From assembly GCA_045580815.1 (NCBI GenBank), contig JAZNOL010000014.1, forward strand, positions 1 to 57,244: DNA of 57,244 nt. The letters are read 5' to 3'. The notes under the pieces are model-generated. The model did not search any database, was not told the DNA's origin, and saw nothing but the letters and a program-made list of their open reading frames with translations. The first letter of the stretch is position 1. Each line of letters starts with the position of its first letter. Shown here piece by piece: positions 7,259 through 16,702 of the stretch. Position numbers and translations under genes: made by a program. Source of the stretch: Clostridia bacterium (GTDB taxonomy: Bacteria > Bacillota > Clostridia > RUG12999).

Positions 7259-8926
7259 ATGAAAACAGACATTGAAATTGCAAGAGAATGCAAATTGCAG
7301 CCTATTGAAGAAATTGCTGCAAAAATCGGTATAAGCCGCGACGACCTTGAGTTTTACGGCAAATACAAAGCAAAACTCAGCGATGAGCTTATTGAAAAGC
7401 TTTCCTCAAACAAAGAGGGTAAACTCATTCTTGTTACAGCTATTAACCCAACACCTGCCGGCGAAGGAAAATCAACAGTTTCGGTTTCTCTTGCCCAGGC
7501 GATGAGCAAAATCGGCACAAAAACAATGCTTGCACTGCGTGAGCCTTCACTTGGTCCGGTTTTCGGTATTAAAGGCGGTGCCGCAGGTGGCGGTTATTCA
7601 CAGGTTGTTCCTATGGAAGATATTAATCTGCATTTCACAGGCGACCTGCACGCTATGACAGCGGCAAACAATCTGCTTTCTGCTCTTATAGACAACCATC
7701 TTCAGCAGGGCAACGAACTCGGAATCAATCCTAAAAGAATTGTATGGAAACGTTGTCTCGACATTAACGACAGAGCACTCCGCAGCGTTATTGTAGGTAT
7801 GGGTGCACCGGCTGACGGTGTTGTTCGTCAGGATGGTTTCCAGAATACTGTTGCTTCTGAAATTATGGCAATTATGTGTCTTGCAGAAAATATGGAAGAC
7901 CTTAAAAACAGACTTTCAAAAATTATTGTTGCATATACTTACGCAGGCAAACCGGTTACTGCTGCTGATTTAAAAGCTGTTGGTTCAATGGCTGTTCTGC
8001 TTAAAGACGCACTTAAACCTAACCTTGTTCAGACGCTGGAAAACACACCCTGTCTTATCCACGGCGGACCTTTTGCGAACATCGCTCACGGCTGTAACAG
8101 TGTACGTGCAACAAAAACAGCACTTCGTCTTGGTGATTACTGCGTAACCGAAGCAGGCTACGGTGCTGACCTTGGCGGTGAAAAATTCCTTGATATAAAA
8201 TGTGTTCTTGCAGGTCTTAAACCTCAGGCTGTTGTGGTTGTTGCAACAGTTCGTGCACTTAAATATAACGGCGGCGTTGCAAAAGATGCACTCACAACAG
8301 AAAATGTTGAGGCACTCAAAAAAGGTCTCCCCAACCTTGGCAAACACATCGAAAACATTCAGTCAACCGGAATCAATCCCATTGTTGCTCTTAACCGTTT
8401 TGCTTGTGATACTGATGCAGAGCTTAAAACAGTTATGGAATATTGTGAAAACTTAGGCGTAAGTGTAAGCCTTTGTGAAGGCTTTGCCAAAGGTGGCGAA
8501 GGTGCAATTGACCTTGCAAATAAGGTTGTGGCAGCAACAGAAAATTATGTGGATTACAAACCGTTCTACGACAAAAATGCACCTATTAAAGAAAAAATTG
8601 AAACAATTGTTAAAAAAGTTTACGGTGGTAGCGGCGTATCATACAGCGCAGCAGCAGAAAAAGCAATCAAAGAAATTGAAGCACTTGGTTTTGACAAAAT
8701 CCCTGTATGTATGGCAAAAACTCAGTATTCACTTTCCGATAACGCAACACTTCTGGGTCGCCCCGAAGGCTTTACCGTAAATGTTCGTGAAGTAAGAGTT
8801 TCAGCAGGTGCAGGCTTTGTTGTTGCAATAACGGGCGAAATTATGACAATGCCCGGTCTGCCCAAAGTTCCGGCGGCAAACAACATCGATATTGACGAAA
8901 ACGGCGTAATCGACGGACTGTTCTAA
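7259..8926 (+). CDS. fhs: Formate--tetrahydrofolate ligase
   Basis: [74 protein letters not shown]; GGAGG RBS. Confidence 0.98.
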
Positions 8927-8942
8927 AAATATTCATGATATG

Positions 8943-8977
8943 AAAAAGCGTGCACCGCTAAGCGGTGCACGCTTTTT
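8943..8977. terminator. Bidirectional intrinsic terminator between fhs and the nitrogenase-like operon
   Basis: Perfect 16-bp inverted repeat AAAAAGCGTGCACCGC-TAA-GCGGTGCACGCTTTTT. Confidence 0.92.
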
Positions 8978-8985
8978 GCTCAGTA

Positions 8986-10101
8986 TTAAAACCCACTTCC
9001 TGCTTCCTGCGATGGCTCAAAGATGGATTTTGCCTGGCTGTCTGTAAGTTCTATACCAAAAACTTCTTTATAATATTTTTTTGTTTCTGCTGTGATGTCG
9101 ATATCTTCAAACAACTGCGGATATGTGTTTTTTGCAAGCCACATTAAAGTTATGGGAGTATCTGCACCGGGCGTATAGCTTCTGTATATACCAAGCGGCA
9201 TTTTAAACACATTTTTGTTCTGCACAGCCTTTATACCGCTCCAGTCATATGCACCGACAGTATTTTCGTATAAATCTTTCGGAAAAGCCTCTGTAAAATT
9301 GCTTATAAATATTGTATCGGGATTCCAGACGTAAACCTGCTCAATATTAACGTGCTGTTCATTGTCTCCCGAAAGCTCTTTTGCAACATTTTTTGCACCG
9401 ATTGCATCAGCCCACCAATCACCGAAAAAGTTGTCTCCGGCGGTGACAATCGCGCTGTCGTTATATTTGAACAAGAAAAATACTTCTGCTTTTTCTTCGT
9501 CAGAAAGATTTTTAACACGTTCTTGTATCATATTGTACACATTGTTGCTATACTCTGCAACAGTATCTGCTTTGCTGTTTTCGGGAAACATCTGATTAAG
9601 AAGTGAAATCCAGTTATTTAAGGTTTCTATACAATTATACTCCCATTTGTTAACCGATACGGCAACAGCATTAAATCCGGCGTTCTTAAGCTGTTCTCCC
9701 TGTTTGGGCTTTGATGCACTGTAAATAACCACATCGGGATTTAATTTCATAAGCTCTTCGGTGTTAAGCTCTCCGCCGGCAAGAAAACCGGTGGAAGCAT
9801 TTAAAATTTCGGGATACAGTTTTGAAAGCAGGCTGTTTTTTGCAGCATTCATACTTCCGGGAGCCATTGCAACAATTTTTTCTCCACTATCAAAAAAGGT
9901 TGCTATAACCGATGGAAGCGGCAATATGTCGCAAACAGCAATACGCTCGATTTTTGCCGGAAGTACAACTTCGTTGTCAAGATGGTCAATAACAGTAATT
10001 GTATCGCCTAAAACCTGTTTTTCTGCCGGTGAACACGCAGAAAGTGTCAATATTAATACCACAGCTAAAATAAGTGATAATTTTCTAAAAATTTTTTTCA
10101 T
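8986..10101 (-). CDS. ABC transporter substrate-binding lipoprotein, helical-backbone (BtuF/FhuD/FepB-like) class
   Basis: Signal peptide with lipobox LSAC; ITVIDHLDNEV.LP..IERI, NTEELMKLNPDVVI, VNIEQV..WNPD.IFI, W..IKAVQN..V; AGGAGG RBS; last gene of the operon. Confidence 0.88.
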   Translation of the reverse strand: MKKIFRKLSLILAVVLILTLSACSPAEKQVLGDTITVIDHLDNEVVLPAKIERIAVCDILPLPSVIATFFDSGEKIVAMAPGSMNAAKNSLLSKLYPEILNASTGFLAGGELNTEELMKLNPDVVIYSASKPKQGEQLKNAGFNAVAVSVNKWEYNCIETLNNWISLLNQMFPENSKADTVAEYSNNVYNMIQERVKNLSDEEKAEVFFLFKYNDSAIVTAGDNFFGDWWADAIGAKNVAKELSGDNEQHVNIEQVYVWNPDTIFISNFTEAFPKDLYENTVGAYDWSGIKAVQNKNVFKMPLGIYRSYTPGADTPITLMWLAKNTYPQLFEDIDITAETKKYYKEVFGIELTDSQAKSIFEPSQEAGSGF

Positions 10102-10112
10102 TCTTATCCTCC

Positions 10113-11240
10113 TTAAATTTCCGTTTCAAGCAGATTAGAAATATTTTCCCGATACATTCTTCCGGAAAATGCTTCGTGGGGAAAATCATAAAATTTTGCA
10201 GATGGGGGGCATATTTTTTCAAAAAGCGGGTCTGCCGCAACAATCGATGCATTTTTTAAAATATTTTTGATATGCTCCTCGTCTTTCATGATTATGCACC
10301 CAAAATTTTTAAAATCCGCATCTGTATCGGGCGGGCATACAACAGTAGGTGTTACGCCGTATTTCTCTTTTATTGCTTTTGCAAGTGATAAGCCTGTAAC
10401 AGCCTCGGAAACAATAAAAATACCGCTGTCGGTGTTGGTATTTCTAATGCATTTGTTCTCCCCTGTTTCTCCGCATTGTTTTATAATATTTATAAACTTT
10501 TCTTCAAAGAATTTTTTTACAGGCAATGCAACAACATACGGTGTGCCATATATCCTGTTTAAATATTTTGCCGCTGCATATCCGCAGGATGAAACAACAA
10601 GATTAACATGTGCCGATGATGCATTTTGAATTTCGTCAAGATTTCCGCCTATACCGAAACGTGATACAACCTCGATGTCATATTTATAAAGCAAATCTTC
10701 TAACCCATTACAATATCCGGTTAACGAAAAATCAAGAGGTGTTGTTCCTATAATATTAACCGACAAATTTTTAGTTTTTTCTTTTTTCTCCGTAACAAAC
10801 CGTTTTGCAATTGCTTCAAACGCCATTGACGCACCGCTTATATAACTGTGCATTCCATTTGTAGAAAAACCAAAACACGGTATATCCGTCATATTTTCAA
10901 TGATTTTAGCAACCGCTTTAAGGTCTGTTCCTGTAATCATAGGAAGCGGTGTTCCGGCAATAGCTATAAATTTGGGACTCAGGCTTTGAGCTGTGCTTAC
11001 AATATCATTAATAAGTTTTTCGTCATCGCCCATAATCATATCCATTTCGGATATTGCTGATATAAAAACAAGACTGTCAAAATCATACCAGCGCGGTTCG
11101 TCGTGGGTATTATAAGTGGAATTGCACCCGGAAGCATCATCAATAACCGTCATTCCGCCCATTTCAAAAAGAGCTGAGGCAACACCTGAAACATCGGCTG
11201 TATATGTTGAAATAAAAGATGAAGCCTGATTTACAGACAT
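10113..11240 (-). CDS. Nitrogenase component-1-like oxidoreductase subunit (NifK/BchB/CfbD superfamily), divergent
   Basis: DASGC, SAISEMDMIMGDDEKL, SPKFIAIAGTP...GTDL and FSTNG match the oxidored_nitro fold layout; 375 aa; start overlaps the upstream gene. Confidence 0.8.
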   Translation of the reverse strand: MSVNQASSFISTYTADVSGVASALFEMGGMTVIDDASGCNSTYNTHDEPRWYDFDSLVFISAISEMDMIMGDDEKLINDIVSTAQSLSPKFIAIAGTPLPMITGTDLKAVAKIIENMTDIPCFGFSTNGMHSYISGASMAFEAIAKRFVTEKKEKTKNLSVNIIGTTPLDFSLTGYCNGLEDLLYKYDIEVVSRFGIGGNLDEIQNASSAHVNLVVSSCGYAAAKYLNRIYGTPYVVALPVKKFFEEKFINIIKQCGETGENKCIRNTNTDSGIFIVSEAVTGLSLAKAIKEKYGVTPTVVCPPDTDADFKNFGCIIMKDEEHIKNILKNASIVAADPLFEKICPPSAKFYDFPHEAFSGRMYRENISNLLETEI

Positions 11241-12571
11241 GACTCACACCCCAATCCTTTTACCTGAATAAGTTTTTGCGTTTCCTTTTCTGTCAAAAAT
11301 GCGTCTTCAATCTCACTGCAAAGACGGACTATACCGTCAAAGCCCCAATGACCGCCGCCTTCAACGATATTTACAAAATTGCGACTTCCCGTAAAATACG
11401 CCGCTTTTTGACCTATACATACAATTTTGTCGTTAAATTTTCTTGGCAGAACACGCATTGTAGGATGAACTGTCGGATACACTTCCAAATCAGGTTTAAT
11501 CAGTTTTAATTTTTCAAACGCCGGTTTATCTTCGGCTGTAACGCTGTCTGCATACACACGCACAACGTTAACTGCATTTTCCGAAAACAGAAGAGCCAGC
11601 TCGAAAGGGCGTGAAACTGCTGTATAATCAATTGCAACAGGAACATTACCTATTACAGCTTTCATTTTTTCGATGGCATTTTGTGCGTTTTTTTGCAAAT
11701 CTTCAATATCAAGCACTTCCGCTGTTCCAAGAGTTTCAACAAGCATTTTTATATGATTTTTTATTGTTTCAAAGTTGAAACTGCACGGAATATACAAATG
11801 CTTTTGCCCAAATTTTTCAGCAAGCTCGTCTCCGGCACATTTTGCCGCCGGATAATAGGTTATATTTAAAGCAGACGAAGCCATTGACTGATATTCATTG
11901 TATGTTTTACAGTTTGTAATTTCTTTAACATTAAAACCGCTTGATTTGAGAATTTCAATAAGCTCACTTGATTCATCGGTGGAAAAATCGTTACCTATAA
12001 TATTAACTGATTTAAAATCTGTCTGCGTGGGTTTTAACAGCGAATAAAGCTGTTTTCTCATTATCTGGTCAGGAGTAAGTCCGCTTTTTCGCATAATGGG
12101 ATTCATGTAGCAATCAGTAAAATCTATATCAGGAAAATTGGTTTTCAATGTTTTAAAAACATAATCCATATCACAACCCATAAAGTGGTGAATACAGCTT
12201 GTATACAGCAAAATCGCAGCTGGTTTATACGGCAATTCGGATAAAATTTTTGAAACTCCGTCAATAATAAGAGTTTCCATACTTCCGTCAAGAACATTGT
12301 GCTCTTTGATTTCTATTGTAGAAAACCGCCCTGATGCACCCATTTCTGCCGCTGTCAGCACAACGCCACGCAAACAGCCTGCTGCACATACAAAAATCTG
12401 ATGCGCCCCCGGAATAAGCATTCCGGTGTGAACAATGTTCCACGTTCCCCTTGCCGGAGCACCGTATTCAAGAGTGCTTTCAAAAAGTTTTGATGAATCG
12501 GCATCTTTGATTTTTTTACATATTTCCGGCATGATTTCGGTTTTATTGTCAGGTCTGATTTGTTTAAGCAT
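11231..12571 (-). CDS. Nitrogenase component-1-like oxidoreductase subunit (NifD/NifE/BchN superfamily), divergent
   Basis: VCAAGC (C62/C66), LYTSCI (C126), VNIIG and LNITYYP..KCAG..L..KFG..H; adjacent to the NifH-like gene. Confidence 0.82.
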   Translation of the reverse strand: MLKQIRPDNKTEIMPEICKKIKDADSSKLFESTLEYGAPARGTWNIVHTGMLIPGAHQIFVCAAGCLRGVVLTAAEMGASGRFSTIEIKEHNVLDGSMETLIIDGVSKILSELPYKPAAILLYTSCIHHFMGCDMDYVFKTLKTNFPDIDFTDCYMNPIMRKSGLTPDQIMRKQLYSLLKPTQTDFKSVNIIGNDFSTDESSELIEILKSSGFNVKEITNCKTYNEYQSMASSALNITYYPAAKCAGDELAEKFGQKHLYIPCSFNFETIKNHIKMLVETLGTAEVLDIEDLQKNAQNAIEKMKAVIGNVPVAIDYTAVSRPFELALLFSENAVNVVRVYADSVTAEDKPAFEKLKLIKPDLEVYPTVHPTMRVLPRKFNDKIVCIGQKAAYFTGSRNFVNIVEGGGHWGFDGIVRLCSEIEDAFLTEKETQKLIQVKGLGCESCL

Positions 12572-13331
12572 CTGATACCTCCTTAAACTGAGCCATCATA
12601 GCATCAGCAAGTTTTTCGTATTCTTTTGCCATTTCACTTTCAGGAAACGCTTCAATTACAGTTTTACCAAGCTCTTCTGCATCAAGAACGATTTCGCTTC
12701 TATTTAAACTGCCAACTATTTTGGTTTCAAGGTCATCGGCAAGCTCGGCAACCTTTTCTTCTTCATTTTTTACGTTACGTCTGTTTAAAATTATACCGCC
12801 AAGACGGGCATATCCCCTGCCTTTAAAATTCTGCGTTGCCATACCGATATTTGCCGCCGCATGAATCGACATATTCTCTCCGCTTGTAATTACGAAAACC
12901 TTTTCGGCATATCCGGGACGCATAGGCATTGTAAATCCGCCGCACACAACATCGCCCAGCACATCATAAAATACTATATCGGGTTTGTAGACCTCAAAAG
13001 CACCTTTTTCTTCGAGCTTTTCAAGGGATGCTATTATCCCTCTGCCTGCACAGCCCATGCCTGGTGCAGGTCCTCCTGCCTCAACGCACAGCACACCCCC
13101 AAAGCCTTTTATCACCATGTCATCAAGGGTGAAATTATTTCCTTTTTCACGGATAAGGTCAAGCACAGTAGAAACTTCTTTTTTCCCGCGAAGTAAAACC
13201 GTTGAATCTGCTTTCGGGTCACAGCCTATCTGCATAACGGTAAGCCCTTTTTTTGCAAGCGATGCTGATATATTTGAAACTGTGGTAGATTTCCCTATAC
13301 CGCCTTTTCCGTAAATTGCCGCTTTTATCAT
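12564..13331 (-). CDS. NifH/BchL/CfbC-like Fe protein (nitrogenase-reductase-like ATPase)
   Basis: GKGGIGKST P-loop, QIGCDPKAD, EAGGPAPGMGCAGRG (C94) and YDVLGDVVCGGF (C130). At 255 aa it lacks the C-terminal tail of canonical NifH. Confidence 0.95.
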   Translation of the reverse strand: MIKAAIYGKGGIGKSTTVSNISASLAKKGLTVMQIGCDPKADSTVLLRGKKEVSTVLDLIREKGNNFTLDDMVIKGFGGVLCVEAGGPAPGMGCAGRGIIASLEKLEEKGAFEVYKPDIVFYDVLGDVVCGGFTMPMRPGYAEKVFVITSGENMSIHAAANIGMATQNFKGRGYARLGGIILNRRNVKNEEEKVAELADDLETKIVGSLNRSEIVLDAEELGKTVIEAFPESEMAKEYEKLADAMMAQFKEVSDA

Positions 13332-14386
13332 ATTTTTGTTTCTCCTTTATAAAAATCTCCTCTGCCTATAACGGCTTCATATCCTATTTCTTTCAATTTT
13401 TCTTCAAAATCCTTTTTATGATTAACTGTTTGACCGGTTGTTCCCACTTTGTTGTCATAAAGCATATATTTTGCTTTTACCTCCTGCGGAGATAAGTTGA
13501 GCATTATTACGTTTGCACCGGCAAGGATTCCTTTTATACGTCCGTCTTTTTCTGCTGTTCCGAGAGCTGTTGTTGACGGAAGTAAAACTGCCGGAAGCAT
13601 TATTCTTGTAAGTGCAAGTAAAAATAATGTCAATGTTACATCTCCGGCAGATTCTTTTGCAAATGGTGTATCTTTGTGAGGAATAAACGGACCTATCCCC
13701 ACCATGTGTGGCTTAAAATCACCCAGAAACATCATATCTTCAGCCAGATTTTCAACTGTCTGATAAGGCGAGCCTACCATAAACCCTGCACCAACCTGAA
13801 AGCCTATATTTTTCAGATTAAAGAGACACTCTTTTCGTGTAGCAGGAGACATCTTTTCGGGATGCAGTTTTGCATAATGGTCACCGTTTGCCGTTTCATG
13901 GCGAAGCAGGTATCTGTCTGCACCGGCATCGAAATATTTTTTATATGTTTCTTTTGTTTTTTCGCCTAAAGACAACGTAACCGCACAATCGGGATATTTC
14001 TTTTTTAGTGTTTTAATAATATCACACATGATTTCGTCGGTATAATGCAAATCTTCGCCGCCTTGCAGCACAAAAGTGCGAAACCCAAGCACATACCCTT
14101 CATCAGCGCACATTAAAATATCTTCTTTTGAAAGTCGATATCTGGCGGCGTTTTTGTTGCCGCAACGTATGCCGCAATAATAACAGTCATTTTTGCAGTA
14201 ATTTGATATTTCTATAAGACCGCGCATAAAAATTTTGCTGCCGTATATTTTCTTTACAATTTCGGTTGCAAGAGATATTGCATAATTGCAATCGTCTTCT
14301 GTATAACTGCCTATAAGTGTTATCCATTCCTGCTTTGAAAGTGTTTTTTCTTTATTCAGTTTATCAATTAAAAATTTATTGTTCAC
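13328..14386 (-). CDS. hydE: HydE-like radical SAM protein (BioB/HydE/PylB superfamily)
   Basis: CKNDCYYC (C64/68/71), RYLLRHETAN, GIGPFIPH.DTP, LPSTTAL, GANVIM and Y.LYDNK are HydE-family signatures; GTG start. Confidence 0.88.
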   Translation of the reverse strand: MNNKFLIDKLNKEKTLSKQEWITLIGSYTEDDCNYAISLATEIVKKIYGSKIFMRGLIEISNYCKNDCYYCGIRCGNKNAARYRLSKEDILMCADEGYVLGFRTFVLQGGEDLHYTDEIMCDIIKTLKKKYPDCAVTLSLGEKTKETYKKYFDAGADRYLLRHETANGDHYAKLHPEKMSPATRKECLFNLKNIGFQVGAGFMVGSPYQTVENLAEDMMFLGDFKPHMVGIGPFIPHKDTPFAKESAGDVTLTLFLLALTRIMLPAVLLPSTTALGTAEKDGRIKGILAGANVIMLNLSPQEVKAKYMLYDNKVGTTGQTVNHKKDFEEKLKEIGYEAVIGRGDFYKGETKI

Positions 14387-14401
14387 GTGTTACCACCTTG
14401 T

Positions 14402-15466
14402 TTACTGTTCGTCCTCATAAATAGTTTTTACGTTAATGCCTTTCATTGACGAGAGCTTCAGCTCCATGCCCTTTAACTTTGACTGCGGGCCGTCAAGTGT
14501 AAGGTTTATTACTCTGATGTCATATTTTTTGTACGGCATACCCATTCTGCCGACAATATATTTTCCGTATTCATGAATACATTTGTTTACTTCATCAACC
14601 GATGCATCATTTTTAACGGTTACCGACATAACCGCCAACTTATTTCCGAACTCAGAAATTTTCAGCTTCGCTGTATTTTCGGAAGATATTTCAACGGGCA
14701 CAATATCATGTAAAGCATTTTTTTCTGTTTCAACCGTGCCGATGACGGTTTTTACCCCAAACGCCGCTTCAATATTCTTTTCTGTAACAACCTCGGCAGT
14801 ATTTCCAAACAATACTCCCCCATGTTTGCTTATAAGCAACGATTTGTTTGCTCTTCGCAGTGCATGAGCCGGATAATGTGTATTAAAAATACAGCAAACG
14901 CCTGATTGTGCCAACTGAGATATTGTATCAAGCACAATTATCTGATTTTTAAAATCAAGGTTTGATTCAGGCTCGTCCAGAATAAGAATCTGCGGATTTG
15001 AAACAAGTGCTCGTGCAATCAGCACCATCTGTAACTGTCCGCCGCTTATTTCGTTACACTGTTTTTCGGCAATGCTTTCTATATTAAGTCTTTTCATAAC
15101 CTCAAACGCATCAGCAACATCTTTTGATGACGGTGTTTCAAAAAAATTCAAGCTTCCGCTTTTTCCAAGAAGTATCATTTCCCGAACGGTCAGCGATGAT
15201 GTGCTCTGTTTTGCCTGTGGAACGTAAGAAACAATGTTCCACAGCTGTTTCGGGGAAAGATTTTTTATGTTTTTTCCGCCGATTATGCTTTCTCCGCTAC
15301 GCCATTTCAAAAATCCCATTATGCATTTAAGAAGTGTTGTTTTTCCTACACCGTTTGGCCCGAGAATAGCAATAACATCCCCTTTTTGTGCATCAAAATT
15401 TATATTTTCCAATATGTTATTCTGTTTCGCATATCCGAAACAACCATTTTTAACCGACAATATCAC
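14402..15466 (-). CDS. FepC/BtuD-type ABC ATPase fused to a C-terminal TM1266-like (iron-only hydrogenase system regulator, ACT-like) domain
   Basis: GPNGVGKTT, ISGGQ, LILDEP and NTH; C-terminal EVNKCIHEYGKYIVGRMGMPY...LTLDGP...GINVKT resembles TM1266. The real start is GTG 15466 in a GTGA overlap with the permease stop; the ORF-track extension to 15739 is spurious. Confidence 0.85.
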   Translation of the reverse strand: MILSVKNGCFGYAKQNNILENINFDAQKGDVIAILGPNGVGKTTLLKCIMGFLKWRSGESIIGGKNIKNLSPKQLWNIVSYVPQAKQSTSSLTVREMILLGKSGSLNFFETPSSKDVADAFEVMKRLNIESIAEKQCNEISGGQLQMVLIARALVSNPQILILDEPESNLDFKNQIIVLDTISQLAQSGVCCIFNTHYPAHALRRANKSLLISKHGGVLFGNTAEVVTEKNIEAAFGVKTVIGTVETEKNALHDIVPVEISSENTAKLKISEFGNKLAVMSVTVKNDASVDEVNKCIHEYGKYIVGRMGMPYKKYDIRVINLTLDGPQSKLKGMELKLSSMKGINVKTIYEDEQ

Positions 15467-16500
15467 AGCTGCCACCCCTTTCCTCTGCGAAGAAGGAATA
15501 TGAAAAACGGTGCGCCTATTATGGCTGTCAGCACAGAAATTGGAATTTCTGATACAGAAGCCGACCTTGCAACCGTGTCTGTAAGCATCATAAATGCCGC
15601 ACCGAGACTTATTGATGCCGGCACAATAGAAAGATGGTTTGCACCAAATTTCATGCGGCATATATGAGGAATTATAAGCCCTACCCATCCAACCTGACCG
15701 CACATTGCAATGCTTGCGGCGGTAACAGCAGTTGAACAAATAACGGTTACTATCCGTGTGAGTTTTAAATTGACACCTGTTGACTGAGCCTCTTCATCTG
15801 AAAGCACAAGAATATTAAGTCGCCACCTGATTATATATAATACTAAAACACCAATGGCAATTACGGTTATTCCGGGTATGATGGAAGAAAATCCGGCACC
15901 GTTTAAACTTCCCATAAGAAAATATGTTATTGCCGGAAGCTGCGTTTCGGAATCGGCAAGAAATTTTACCAACGAAACAAGAGCTGAAAACAGGGAGCTT
16001 ATCATTATACCGGACAAAACCACGCTACTCATTCCCCTACCAAGTTTTGAACCTGAAAACCAGGTGAGAGCAACAGCACCAAGTCCAAAAGCAAAGGCAC
16101 AGATATGGATTCCAAGTGTGTTAAATCCAAGAAGAATTCCAAGTGCCGCACCAAAGCTTGCTCCACCCGCCGCACCGAGGGTATCGGGCGTTGCAAGAGG
16201 ATTGGCAAAAAGGCTCTGATATGCACAACCGCTGACAGAAAGACCCGCCCCTACAAATGCCGCAAGAAGAATGCGCGGAAGACGTATTGTGTTTATTATT
16301 GTTGTGATTTGTGCAGGAAGCCCGGAATTTGCGTTAAAAAGCTCCGCAAGTGCCTTAAAAGTGTCAGGCAGGGAAATTATCATTCTTCCGCTGCAAAGAG
16401 CAATAATCGCTGCAAAAACCGGAATAATCAGTAATAATATTTTTGCTTTAACGGATAATCCGCCGGGTGCTGTTTTCTTTAAAGATTTACTTCTGTTCAT
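15463..16500 (-). CDS. FecCD/BtuC-family ABC permease
   Basis: IRLPRILLA..VGAGLSVSG..YQ.LF.NPLA.PD.LG...GA, EEAQSTGVN, GQVGWVGLIIPHI.R, EIPISVLTAIIGAPFF. Confidence 0.95.
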   Translation of the reverse strand: MNRSKSLKKTAPGGLSVKAKILLLIIPVFAAIIALCSGRMIISLPDTFKALAELFNANSGLPAQITTIINTIRLPRILLAAFVGAGLSVSGCAYQSLFANPLATPDTLGAAGGASFGAALGILLGFNTLGIHICAFAFGLGAVALTWFSGSKLGRGMSSVVLSGIMISSLFSALVSLVKFLADSETQLPAITYFLMGSLNGAGFSSIIPGITVIAIGVLVLYIIRWRLNILVLSDEEAQSTGVNLKLTRIVTVICSTAVTAASIAMCGQVGWVGLIIPHICRMKFGANHLSIVPASISLGAAFMMLTDTVARSASVSEIPISVLTAIIGAPFFIFLLRRGKGWQL

Positions 16501-16514
16501 TTTAGTTTCCTTTC

Positions 16515-16550
16515 AAAAACAAAAAGCTGTGCTTCTTTCGAAAGCACAGC
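16515..16550 (-). terminator. Intrinsic terminator (attenuator) in the 5' leader of the nitrogenase-like operon
   Basis: GCUGUGCUU-loop-AAGCACAGC followed by UUUUUGUUUUU, just before the AAAGGA RBS of the first gene and downstream of the promoter. Confidence 0.8.
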
Positions 16551-16673
16551 CTGCATATGCATAACAAACAGATTTAACCTAAAAAGGCTAAATCAACTGT
16601 AAACAAAGGTCATCGGCTTTCATCTCAAAACGTATTTTTGATGTCAGGGTCATAACATTTAGTTTGTATTTAT

Positions 16674-16702
16674 ATTATATATTAAATTCAAAGGTTTGTC
16701 AA
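16674..16702 (-). promoter_or_regulatory. Consensus sigmaA promoter of the nitrogenase-like operon
   Basis: Exact TTGACA-17 nt-TATAAT, giving a leader of about 165 nt. Confidence 0.88.

Follow-up and report, generated by a model that had tools for sequence, protein, structure and literature searches.

What is a nitrogenase-like reductase doing in one operon with a metal-chelate-type importer and a hydrogenase maturase? The question is raised by a 57,244-nt stretch of DNA from contig JAZNOL010000014.1 of a Clostridia bacterium (the whole stretch is referred to below as the window), in which an operon on the minus strand (positions 8986 to 16702) encodes the permease and ATPase of an ATP-binding cassette (ABC) importer, the radical S-adenosylmethionine (SAM) enzyme HydE, three proteins resembling NifH, NifD and NifK (NflH1, NflD1 and NflK1, for nitrogen-fixation-like), and the substrate-binding protein (SBP) of the importer. 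Comparative analysis suggests, with moderate confidence, that this operon is the importer-type (salvage) variant of a HydG-independent pathway for maturing the [FeFe]-hydrogenase H-cluster. The distribution, the genomic position and the partners of the Nfl system support the view that it would stand in for HydG.

By the current view, H-cluster biosynthesis requires three maturases and no more: HydE, HydF and HydG, the last of which is a tyrosine-lyase radical SAM enzyme that makes an Fe(CO)2(CN) synthon. To our knowledge, every current mechanism for the H-cluster starts from this tyrosine-derived synthon of HydG. The Fe(CN)2(CO) unit of [NiFe] hydrogenases is assembled by HypCDEF. A survey of clostridial acetogens published in 2022 reported HydE and HydF in all species examined, and described in the Clostridium ljungdahlii group active [FeFe] hydrogenases and HypCDEF without HypA or HypB, together with no convincing HydG, for which the authors had no straightforward explanation (PMC9431212). 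Moreover, a single sentence in Dos Santos et al. (2012) mentions Firmicutes with NifHEN-like genes beside hydrogenase maturation genes, and others with such genes beside ABC transporters, names Coprococcus catus as an example and suggests a role in metallocluster assembly (PMC3464626). These NifHEN-like genes very probably belong to the same gene family, in the same two contexts, as the Nfl cluster described here. No literature linking a nitrogenase-like system to HydG or to the H-cluster was found, and nothing on the Nfl system itself beyond that gap and that sentence. A 2026 review of nitrogen-fixation-like proteins in Chemical Reviews contains neither HydE nor an Nfl-HydE cluster, and calls most functions in Groups IV and VI unknown (PMC13474568). 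Two further papers, on the proteome of Methanococcus voltae grown on pyrite and on Group VI proteins of Elusimicrobia, were unrelated to the cluster. No characterised system with this gene set was found in the literature, in agreement with the initial annotation of the window.

Hydrogenase maturation genes in the host genome

The HydE encoded in the operon matches the HydE model over its full length, conserves the cysteines of the CX3CX2C motif (C64, C68 and C71), and is the single HydE match in the genome assembly (G000; 2.09 Mb, 85% complete). The genome also encodes HydF on contig C80 (560 bits) and two [FeFe]-hydrogenase large subunits (Fe_hyd_lg_C). No HydG was found in this 85%-complete assembly: the sole match to the HydG model TIGR03955 was HydE itself (80 bits), and a tblastn search with the HydG of Intestinibacter bartlettii retrieved only HydE, so that the genome lacks the HydG that defines a canonical HydEFG system. 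Genes for HypF, HypD, HypE and a second Nfl set were likewise not found in the genome, and the window represents the importer (type A) form of the cluster. The operon had been described as self-contained and its radical SAM protein as HydE-like. Neither description fits, because the only HydE of the genome is encoded in the operon, with HydF and two HydA elsewhere, and one of the maturases of the hydrogenases is thus an operon gene.

Anti-correlation between the Nfl cluster and HydG

Among 30 host genomes of the cluster, HydE was found in 30/30, nearly always as one copy, and the in-cluster hydE, where present, was that copy. An [FeFe] hydrogenase was encoded in 29/30, and HydG scored above the cut-off in 3/30 (absent from 27/30). 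An evenly drawn sample of 400 genomes from the class (399 scored) was then searched for HydG, HydE and NflD; the strong NflD matches scored 478 bits or more in the profile search. HydE was present in 257 genomes, 236 with HydG and 21 without. Strong NflD was detected in 11 of the 21 HydE-positive genomes without HydG versus none of the 236 with HydG (Fisher p = 5e-14), and all 11 NflD genomes were HydE-positive and HydG-negative. This anti-correlation is observed directly in the genomes. The 11 genomes span 8 families; ten are 93-100% complete, and the window's own genome (85%) makes up the eleventh. For six of the 8 families, other sampled genomes carried HydG and lacked Nfl.

The same pattern was found within genera. 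The HydG-positive genomes G188 and G370 (genus g70), G326 (genus g177) and G287 carry a tm1266-hydE-hydG-hydF operon. In contrast, the Nfl-positive congeners in g70 (G100, G242 and G268) carry nflH2D2K2-hypF-hypD-hypE-tm1266-nflD1-nflK1-hydF and no hydG, and the Nfl-positive congener in g177 (G399) carries permease-ATPase~tm1266-nflHDK-sbp-hydF, again with no hydG. The Nfl module therefore fills the slot between tm1266 and hydF that is otherwise held by hydG.

Conservation of the cluster

Homologues of NflD number at least 3955, and the family occurs in at least 587 species genomes according to a pattern scan. Among the hosts are numerous Oscillospiraceae, Lachnospiraceae and Erysipelotrichia from gut and rumen, Intestinibacter bartlettii, Synergistaceae and Victivallales, as well as the acetogens C. 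ljungdahlii, C. ragsdalei, C. luticellarii and C. muellerianum. Neighbourhoods were tallied for the best 80 NflD loci, in which the typical order is [tm1266]-permease-ATPase~TM1266-[hydE]-nflH-nflD-nflK-sbp-[hydF]. Importer genes were present at 63/80 loci, hydE adjoined at 49/80 (it is encoded away from about 40% of the clusters), and a gene for HydF (PF18133/PF18128) followed sbp at 26/80. Gene content and the clustering with hydE, hydF and tm1266 can be read directly from these loci.

The gene arrangement is far beyond chance, since the order recurs in 63/80 related loci from different families and phyla. The link between hydE or TM1266 and the nfl genes is kept across Clostridia, Erysipelotrichia, Synergistaceae and Victivallales; chance juxtaposition of these parts, which the initial annotation had named as the finding that would overturn its idea of an import-and-process module, therefore fails, and the module is conserved. 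Membership of the cluster in the set of [FeFe]-hydrogenase maturation genes is well supported, because hydF follows sbp at 26 loci and Nfl occupies the place of hydG in congeners. The association between Nfl and HydE is real, conserved and uncharacterised.

A third clade of NflHDK paralogues was observed at loci L147-L151 (genomes G337, G225, G263, G318 and G375), with NflD about 30% identical and scoring 220-334 bits against the NflD1 profile. It occurs with and without HydE or HydG, once beside an SBP gene and once beside an ABC ATPase gene, and is apparently independent of hydrogenase maturation.

Two alternative forms of the cluster

Eight or nine of the 80 loci had no importer and carried a second NflHDK set (25% identical) followed by hypF-(hypC)-hypD-hypE (type B). 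The order in acetogens was nflH2D2K2-hypF-hypD-hypE-nflH1D1K1, and in Victivallales tm1266-hydE-nflH1D1K1-nflH2D2K2-hypF-hypD. A 122-aa open reading frame (ORF) between hypE and nflH1 in the acetogens was unrelated. Among the loci examined, none held both the importer and the Nfl2-HypFCDE module. Genome-wide, HypF (TIGR00143) was found in 8/8 hosts of the non-importer form, always beside nflH2D2K2, and in 0/23 importer-type hosts, the window's genome included; in G029, HypF was located on another contig, and was again preceded by nflH2D2K2. The importer and Nfl2 plus HypFCDE are alternative partners of a constant core of NflHDK1, HydE, HydF and TM1266, a dichotomy that is directly visible in the genomes.

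HydG was found in 0/14 type B genomes, and the three genomes that hold both HydG and Nfl are all importer-type. This exclusion pattern matches what would be predicted if type B were a biosynthetic form and the importer form a salvage one, although such a match is no proof of the split. In genus g70, loci L133 and L134 (G100 and G242) and L146 (G268) contain only one nflH, located with D2K2, and D1K1 is flanked by tm1266 and hydF. One Fe protein apparently serves two D/K pairs in this genus, by analogy with NifH, which serves both NifEN and NifDK.

Phylogeny of HydE

In the HydE tree, the in-cluster HydEs form one clade, which contains the operon HydE and includes Victivallales. HydEs encoded outside the cluster interleave with those of genomes that have only HydG (G188/G320, support 98/99; G370/G020, support 100/99). 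Because the HydEs of Nfl genomes interleave with those of HydG genomes, HydE probably retains its usual job in Nfl genomes and is not a different enzyme. A repurposed HydE paralogue was considered and rejected, as HydE is single-copy per genome and interleaves in the tree with HydG-partnered HydEs. The HydEs of five metagenome-assembled genomes of Victivallales/Lentisphaeria (loci L066, L076, L083, L086 and L090) nest in the clostridial in-cluster clade with support of 97/94, and this nesting of a distant phylum indicates horizontal transfer of the whole hydE-nfl cluster.

Nitrogenase-like proteins

NflH1 has its best match in the PDB in NifH 1cp2 (E = 1e-72), but scores under the cut-offs of the specific models (nifH 318 bits versus 394, CfbC 312 versus 402, BchL 196 versus 345). 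Its P-loop, as well as the cluster cysteines C94 and C130, showed no variation across 78 sequences. NflD1 and NflK1 are much more divergent. Their best match among nitrogenase models is nifE (36 and 75 bits, respectively, versus a cut-off of 505), the other curated models give 36 bits for CfbD (cut-off 268) and 65 for BchB (cut-off 490), and their best sequence matches in the PDB have E = 0.026 (NflD1) and 2e-7 (NflK1). Against the MarD chains of the PDB, NflK1 matched at E = 0.07 and NflD1 did not match. On the other hand, structure comparison of an AlphaFold model of NflD1, with a predicted local distance difference test (pLDDT) score of 83, revealed a component-1 fold that is equidistant from NifEN, Nif/Vnf/AnfDK, MarDK and BchNB (template-modelling (TM) score about 0.6, 12-17% identity).

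In about 80 sequences, the invariant residues of NflD1 are C62, C66, C126, C154, H48, H57 and H128, and the only invariant Cys/His residues of NflK1 are C39 and H46. A 3+3 P-cluster is excluded because NflK1 keeps one invariant cysteine and NflD1 four. The pattern would fit a single bridging [4Fe-4S] cluster, with 3+1 ligands as in DPOR, and spare ligands for a bound metal species. No reliable alignment of NflD1 to the FeMo-co ligand positions Cys275/His442 was obtained.

The equivalog scores and the P-cluster ligands do not fit nitrogenase proper (Nif/Vnf/Anf), and no NifB or NifEN genes were found in the window or in the 80 related loci, although the whole genome was not searched for NifB. 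The cluster also differs from Group IV reductases (Mar, Isr and Nfa) in that its only radical SAM gene is the HydE equivalog and its neighbours are hyd/hyp or importer genes. It differs from CfbCD in its sub-cut-off scores and its two different D/K subunits, and from DPOR/COR in its sub-cut-off scores and the lack of bch genes, with only the 3+1 cluster-ligand pattern being DPOR-like. Assignment to Group IV, V or VI on the basis of sequence was rejected, since the curated models scored far under their cut-offs and the PDB matches were marginal. The D/K proteins thus fall in no characterised clade, as their description as divergent had implied: all NCBIfam matches are far under cut-off and the fold is equidistant from known enzymes.

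Importer and TM1266 domain

The FecCD permease, the ABC ATPase and the class III SBP are encoded together and represent a type II (BtuCD/FecCD-like) importer. None of the importer proteins reached a substrate-specific NCBIfam cut-off. The C-terminal domain of the ATPase is well above the cut-off of 27 bits for TM1266 (PF21699), a family annotated as a putative regulator of the iron-only hydrogenase system and seen in the context of hydrogenase maturation, and the fusion is found on 46/55 related ATPases. A stand-alone tm1266 often heads the cluster, and canonical hyd operons also begin with tm1266. In the window's genome, a second TM1266 module, a stand-alone protein of 81 aa, is encoded directly after htpG (C37:4236-4481) at a great distance from the operon, so that both a free and a fused form are present.

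The AlphaFold model of the SBP (pLDDT 87) has a two-lobe fold with a long joining helix, and class III SBPs were matched at E = 1e-27. The closest structure is 4ovk, followed by MolA 3psa (molybdate), Helicobacter pylori CeuE 4ls3 (Ni-(His)2) and YiuA; comparison of the model showed no close similarity to heme or cobalamin binders. The entry 4ovk is an uncharacterised SBP of Veillonella parvula (28% identity, TM 0.80/0.90) deposited by a structural-genomics project without an assigned ligand. A corrinoid, tetrapyrrole or organosulfur cargo, as suggested in the initial annotation, is therefore unsupported: the SBP is nearest to binders of small metal species, and there is no gene context of sulfur or tetrapyrrole metabolism.

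Structure of the operon and its leader RNA

The ORF list, Pfam, NCBIfam and the sequence itself agree with the gene order, families, junctions, promoter and terminator originally assigned to the operon, and the absence of nifB/EN, hydA/F/G, bch and cfb genes from the window was likewise confirmed. Seven consecutive ORFs lie on the minus strand between 16500 and 8986 (Table 1). Neighbouring genes are translationally coupled: four pairs overlap, by 4, 4, 8 and 10 nt, and two are separated, by 15 and 11 nt. The ATPase starts with a GTG that overlaps the permease stop as GTGA; a TTG at 15739, taken from the mechanical ORF list, was rejected as its start. The 11-bp GC-rich stem of the operon terminator (8972..8948) is followed by T5, and was not listed by a consensus scan. 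Its symmetric A5-stem-loop-T5 hairpin could also terminate the convergent formate-tetrahydrofolate ligase gene (fhs, 7259-8926). The genes that flank the operon in the window (MecA, DpaA/B-like and GH43; convergent fhs, tsaD and mnmE) are unrelated to it.

Table 1. Features of the nfl-hydE operon in the window
Feature	Coordinates	Strand	Evidence
Sigma-70-type promoter, TTGACA-17-TATAAT	16674..16702	-	consensus match 12/12
Conserved leader RNA motif, YCUGACAYC-RAAA-N-UU-GAGRUGRAAG	16602..16653	-	near transcript 5' end
Intrinsic terminator (predicted attenuator) right before the permease ribosome-binding site	16524..16552	-	12-bp stem then T-run
FecCD/BtuC-type ABC importer permease	15463..16500	-	PF01032 258 bits; under every specific NCBIfam cut-off
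ABC ATPase with C-terminal TM1266-like domain (about 14423-14641)	14402..15466	-	PF00005 112 bits, PF21699 68 bits
HydE, radical SAM H-cluster maturase	13328..14386	-	TIGR03956 543 bits vs cut-off 254.6
NflH1, NifH-like ATPase/[4Fe-4S] reductase	12564..13331	-	PF00142 290 bits
NflD1, very divergent nitrogenase component-1-like subunit	11231..12571	-	PF00148 80 bits
NflK1, partner component-1-like subunit	10113..11240	-	PF00148 109 bits
Lipoprotein SBP (class III, Peripla_BP_2) of the importer	8986..10101	-	PF01497 79 bits; LSAC lipobox
Bidirectional intrinsic terminator, common to operon and convergent fhs	8943..8977	.	A5-GCGTGCACCGC-TTA-GCGGTGCACGC-T5, read in sequence

A leader of roughly 165 nt (fold z = -3.2) comes after the promoter. 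Because it combines a conserved RNA motif with a strong intrinsic terminator right before the ribosome-binding site, the operon is predicted to be under attenuation control and not to be driven simply by its consensus promoter. A regular-expression search found the motif at 20 loci, once at each, with a single occurrence in the window's own genome. A covariance model (R1) matched 27 loci, in every case upstream of the cluster and on the coding strand, and gave 47 bits for the window (E = 1.6e-9). One pair of the 4-bp helix in the motif covaries (UA 11, CG 6, UG 1), and terminators after the motif were also present at L014, L022, L042, L043 and L047. No known riboswitch or Rfam family was detected in a gathering-threshold search of the whole window or in an E-value search of the leader, and the motif of about 32 nt and the terminator together appear to represent an undescribed cis-regulatory leader.

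The leader motif precedes importer-type clusters as well as nflH2 of a type B Nfl2-HypFDE cluster (L127), and both modules therefore respond to a common signal. No match of the covariance model was obtained upstream of the canonical hyd operons L128, L129 and L139 at E <= 1. A similar CTGACGCC...GGCGGAAGG was seen, by eye only, before the canonical tm1266-hydE-hydG-hydF operon L139. It is pure conjecture that TM1266, often the product of the first gene of the cluster, might be a HutP-like protein partner of the leader.

Proposed pathway and alternative explanations

In the proposed pathway, the SBP and the FecCD-type importer would take up a small iron complex, or one bearing CN/CO, from the anoxic gut or rumen, and the TM1266 domain fused to the ATPase would sense a pathway intermediate and gate uptake. 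NflH1 would act as an ATP-driven electron donor, and NflD1K1 as a NifEN-like scaffold or reductase with one bridging [4Fe-4S] cluster and no P-cluster; together they would convert the cargo to Fe(CO)x(CN), the synthon otherwise made by HydG. HydE from the operon and HydF from elsewhere in the genome would then complete the [2Fe] subcluster and pass it on to both HydA proteins. Other lineages would have a de novo module in place of the importer, Nfl2 with HypF, HypC, HypD and HypE, which may supply Fe-bound cyanide from carbamoyl phosphate. This replacement is also what suggests that the importer variant salvages the product of the Nfl2-HypFCDE module. More specifically, anaerobes of gut and rumen that lack both HydG and HypCDEF might salvage a preformed organometallic Fe-cyanide/carbonyl fragment, either made by Nfl2-HypFCDE in other microbes or left over as debris from hydrogenase cofactors, through the SBP and a TM1266-gated importer, after which NflHDK would re-tailor it for HydE and HydF; this part of the scheme is tentative, and we hold it to be possible rather than probable. 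What we infer is the chemistry, the nature of the cargo and which way material flows. The idea of import and processing that was first attached to the operon thus holds as far as the conserved module is concerned, but the process is most likely maturation of a hydrogenase cofactor without HydG.

Several points weigh against a HydG-replacing role. The evidence for it is all comparative, and the function of Nfl is predicted. We know of no nitrogenase-like enzyme that makes or handles Fe-CO/CN species, it is speculative that the gut offers a free organometallic cargo, and the SBP pocket contains no conserved Cys/His that would indicate a ligand. The window's genome is 85% complete, so that hydG could lie in the missing part. 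Three genomes (G008; G019, Intestinibacter bartlettii; G022) hold both HydG and an importer-type cluster, and the two are therefore not strictly exclusive. In addition, 10 of the 21 HydE-positive, HydG-negative genomes had no NflD, which indicates that HydG can be missing without Nfl, owing to assembly gaps or another route; in these ten genomes (G093, G104, G111, G150, G169, G195, G300, G341, G354 and G359) no divergent NflD was found at E <= 1e-10. Several of the ten are 98-100% complete. The Fisher test carries no phylogenetic correction, even though no fewer than 8 families enter into it, and the within-genus contrasts speak to this missing correction.

The importer and NflHDK could instead serve general acquisition of iron or metal chelates, with an ATP-driven low-potential reductase that frees the metal, and be linked to hyd genes only by iron demand and co-regulation, without any replacement of HydG. 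The FecCD permease, the class III SBP, the FepC-like ATPase and the presence of the iron binders YiuA and CeuE among the structural neighbours of the SBP are in line with such a function, as are the resemblance of the TM1266 domain to the C-terminal metal-sensing fold of NikR (according to the family description) and the retention of HydG alongside the cluster in three hosts. However, it leaves unexplained why NflD occurs in 0/236 genomes with HydE and HydG versus 11/21 with HydE alone, why Nfl lies between tm1266 and hydF in congeners without hydG, and why the importer is exchanged for Nfl2 and HypFCDE, which is machinery for cyanide ligands and not for iron uptake. We regard chelate uptake as unlikely. 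It is also rather unlikely that the cluster carries out some other step of maturation or repair, such as delivery of sulfide or iron, reduction of an intermediate for HydE or HydF, or recycling of the [2Fe] unit, with CO and CN coming from an unrecognised source. Its co-location with hydE, hydF and tm1266 is in line with such an accessory step, the ten genomes that manage without HydG and Nfl point to a possible further HydG-independent route, and three genomes hold HydG together with Nfl. Nevertheless, one would expect an accessory step to be found together with HydG, which is the case in none of the 236 genomes, and type B clusters bring in the HypFCDE machinery for CN ligands in genomes of which 0/14 encode HydG.

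A quite improbable explanation is that NflDK is an enzyme for an unrelated substrate (organosulfur, tetrapyrrole or another import), whose cofactor is built by HydE, with HypCDEF and HydF elsewhere, instead of NifB, as the initial annotation had proposed for HydE. The absence of a NifB-like gene from the cluster, the action of Group IV-VI enzymes on non-N2 substrates (PMC13474568) and invariant Cys/His residues in NflD beyond the needs of one [4Fe-4S] cluster would agree with it. On the other hand, the genomes depend for HydA on a single HydE, which does not form a separate subfamily but interleaves with other HydEs in the tree, and which is encoded elsewhere in about 40% of clusters; this disfavours a dedicated role in building the Nfl cofactor. 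Furthermore, an unrelated enzyme leaves it unaccounted for that HydG is excluded, and the cluster is not accompanied by genes of sulfur or tetrapyrrole metabolism. The exclusion of HydG is explained by none of these three alternatives, and replacement of HydG by Nfl remains the reading that we prefer.

Implications

Many anaerobes with active or predicted [FeFe] hydrogenases encode HydE and HydF but no HydG; among them are the C. ljungdahlii group of acetogens, used in industrial gas fermentation, and numerous Clostridia from gut and rumen. The nitrogenase-like system, in its two forms, is a concrete candidate for the missing HydG step, and can be tested in genetically tractable acetogens. If this role is true, it would be a new function for the nitrogenase superfamily and the first nitrogenase-like enzyme in hydrogenase maturation; it would also tie the cyanide-ligand machinery of [NiFe] hydrogenases to [FeFe] maturation and explain orphan HypCDEF without HypAB. 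Genome-based prediction of hydrogen metabolism would have to be revised, as a missing hydG is often read as a sign of a non-functional hydrogenase. The importer form would imply that a hydrogenase cofactor precursor is exchanged within anaerobic communities, and salvage, if true, would represent the first case of a transporter, and of cross-feeding, for the precursor of an organometallic cofactor. The system is also relevant to heterologous production of [FeFe] hydrogenases.

Comparison with known systems

The Nfl cluster shares TM1266, the HydE equivalog, HydF, [FeFe]-hydrogenase hosts and, in congeners, operon position with the canonical tm1266-hydE-hydG-hydF operon. It differs in the lack of HydG, in place of which it has the NifH/D/K-like trio joined to the importer or to Nfl2 and HypFCDE. 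The 2012 sentence on NifHEN-like genes touched on these contexts without analysis of the absence of HydG, the importer/Hyp dichotomy, the leader RNA or the distribution of the family. With NifH-NifEN, the cluster shares an ATP-dependent Fe protein, a pair of two different subunits of component-1 type and, in the model of NflD1, the fold of component 1 (TM about 0.6); NifH-NifEN functions in metallocofactor assembly, and the likeness is drawn to Nfl, the role of which is proposed. In contrast to NifH-NifEN, Nfl has 12-17% identity, no P-cluster Cys set and Hyd/Hyp maturases as partners, and the NifB, NifX and homocitrate genes are absent from the cluster.

The Group IV-VI systems (MarBHDK, IsrBHDK, NfaBHDK, CfbCD, DPOR/COR and the Group VI NflHDK of Elusimicrobia) belong to the same superfamily and have the same architecture of H with D/K. 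Group IV-VI enzymes reduce non-N2 substrates (PMC13474568), and by analogy a non-N2 function would be expected for NflHDK. In a 2026 screen published in mBio (PMC13753814), only Group IV-C showed methylthio-alkane reductase activity. The 3+1 cysteine pattern of Nfl is nearer to the NB-cluster of DPOR than to a P-cluster, whereas the cluster has no NifB-like (NflB) partner and no sulfur or tetrapyrrole context, and its matches to MarD are not significant. The HypCDEF system is shared in part, as type B clusters hold hypF-hypC-hypD-hypE between two Nfl sets, and the C. ljungdahlii group has these genes but not the Ni-insertion proteins HypA and HypB; the window's genome, on the other hand, is without Hyp genes, and the importer would occupy that role here. 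Finally, type II importers of small metal species with regulatory ATPase tails (MolABC, H. pylori CeuE/FecDE for Ni-(His)2, and BtuCDF; trans-inhibition domains in ModC/MetN) resemble the operon's importer in the FecCD permease, the class III SBP and a C-terminal domain of ligand-binding type on the ATPase. Unlike in those systems, the ATPase tail in the operon is TM1266, otherwise a stand-alone protein of hyd maturation operons, and the importer genes flank a nitrogenase-like enzyme.

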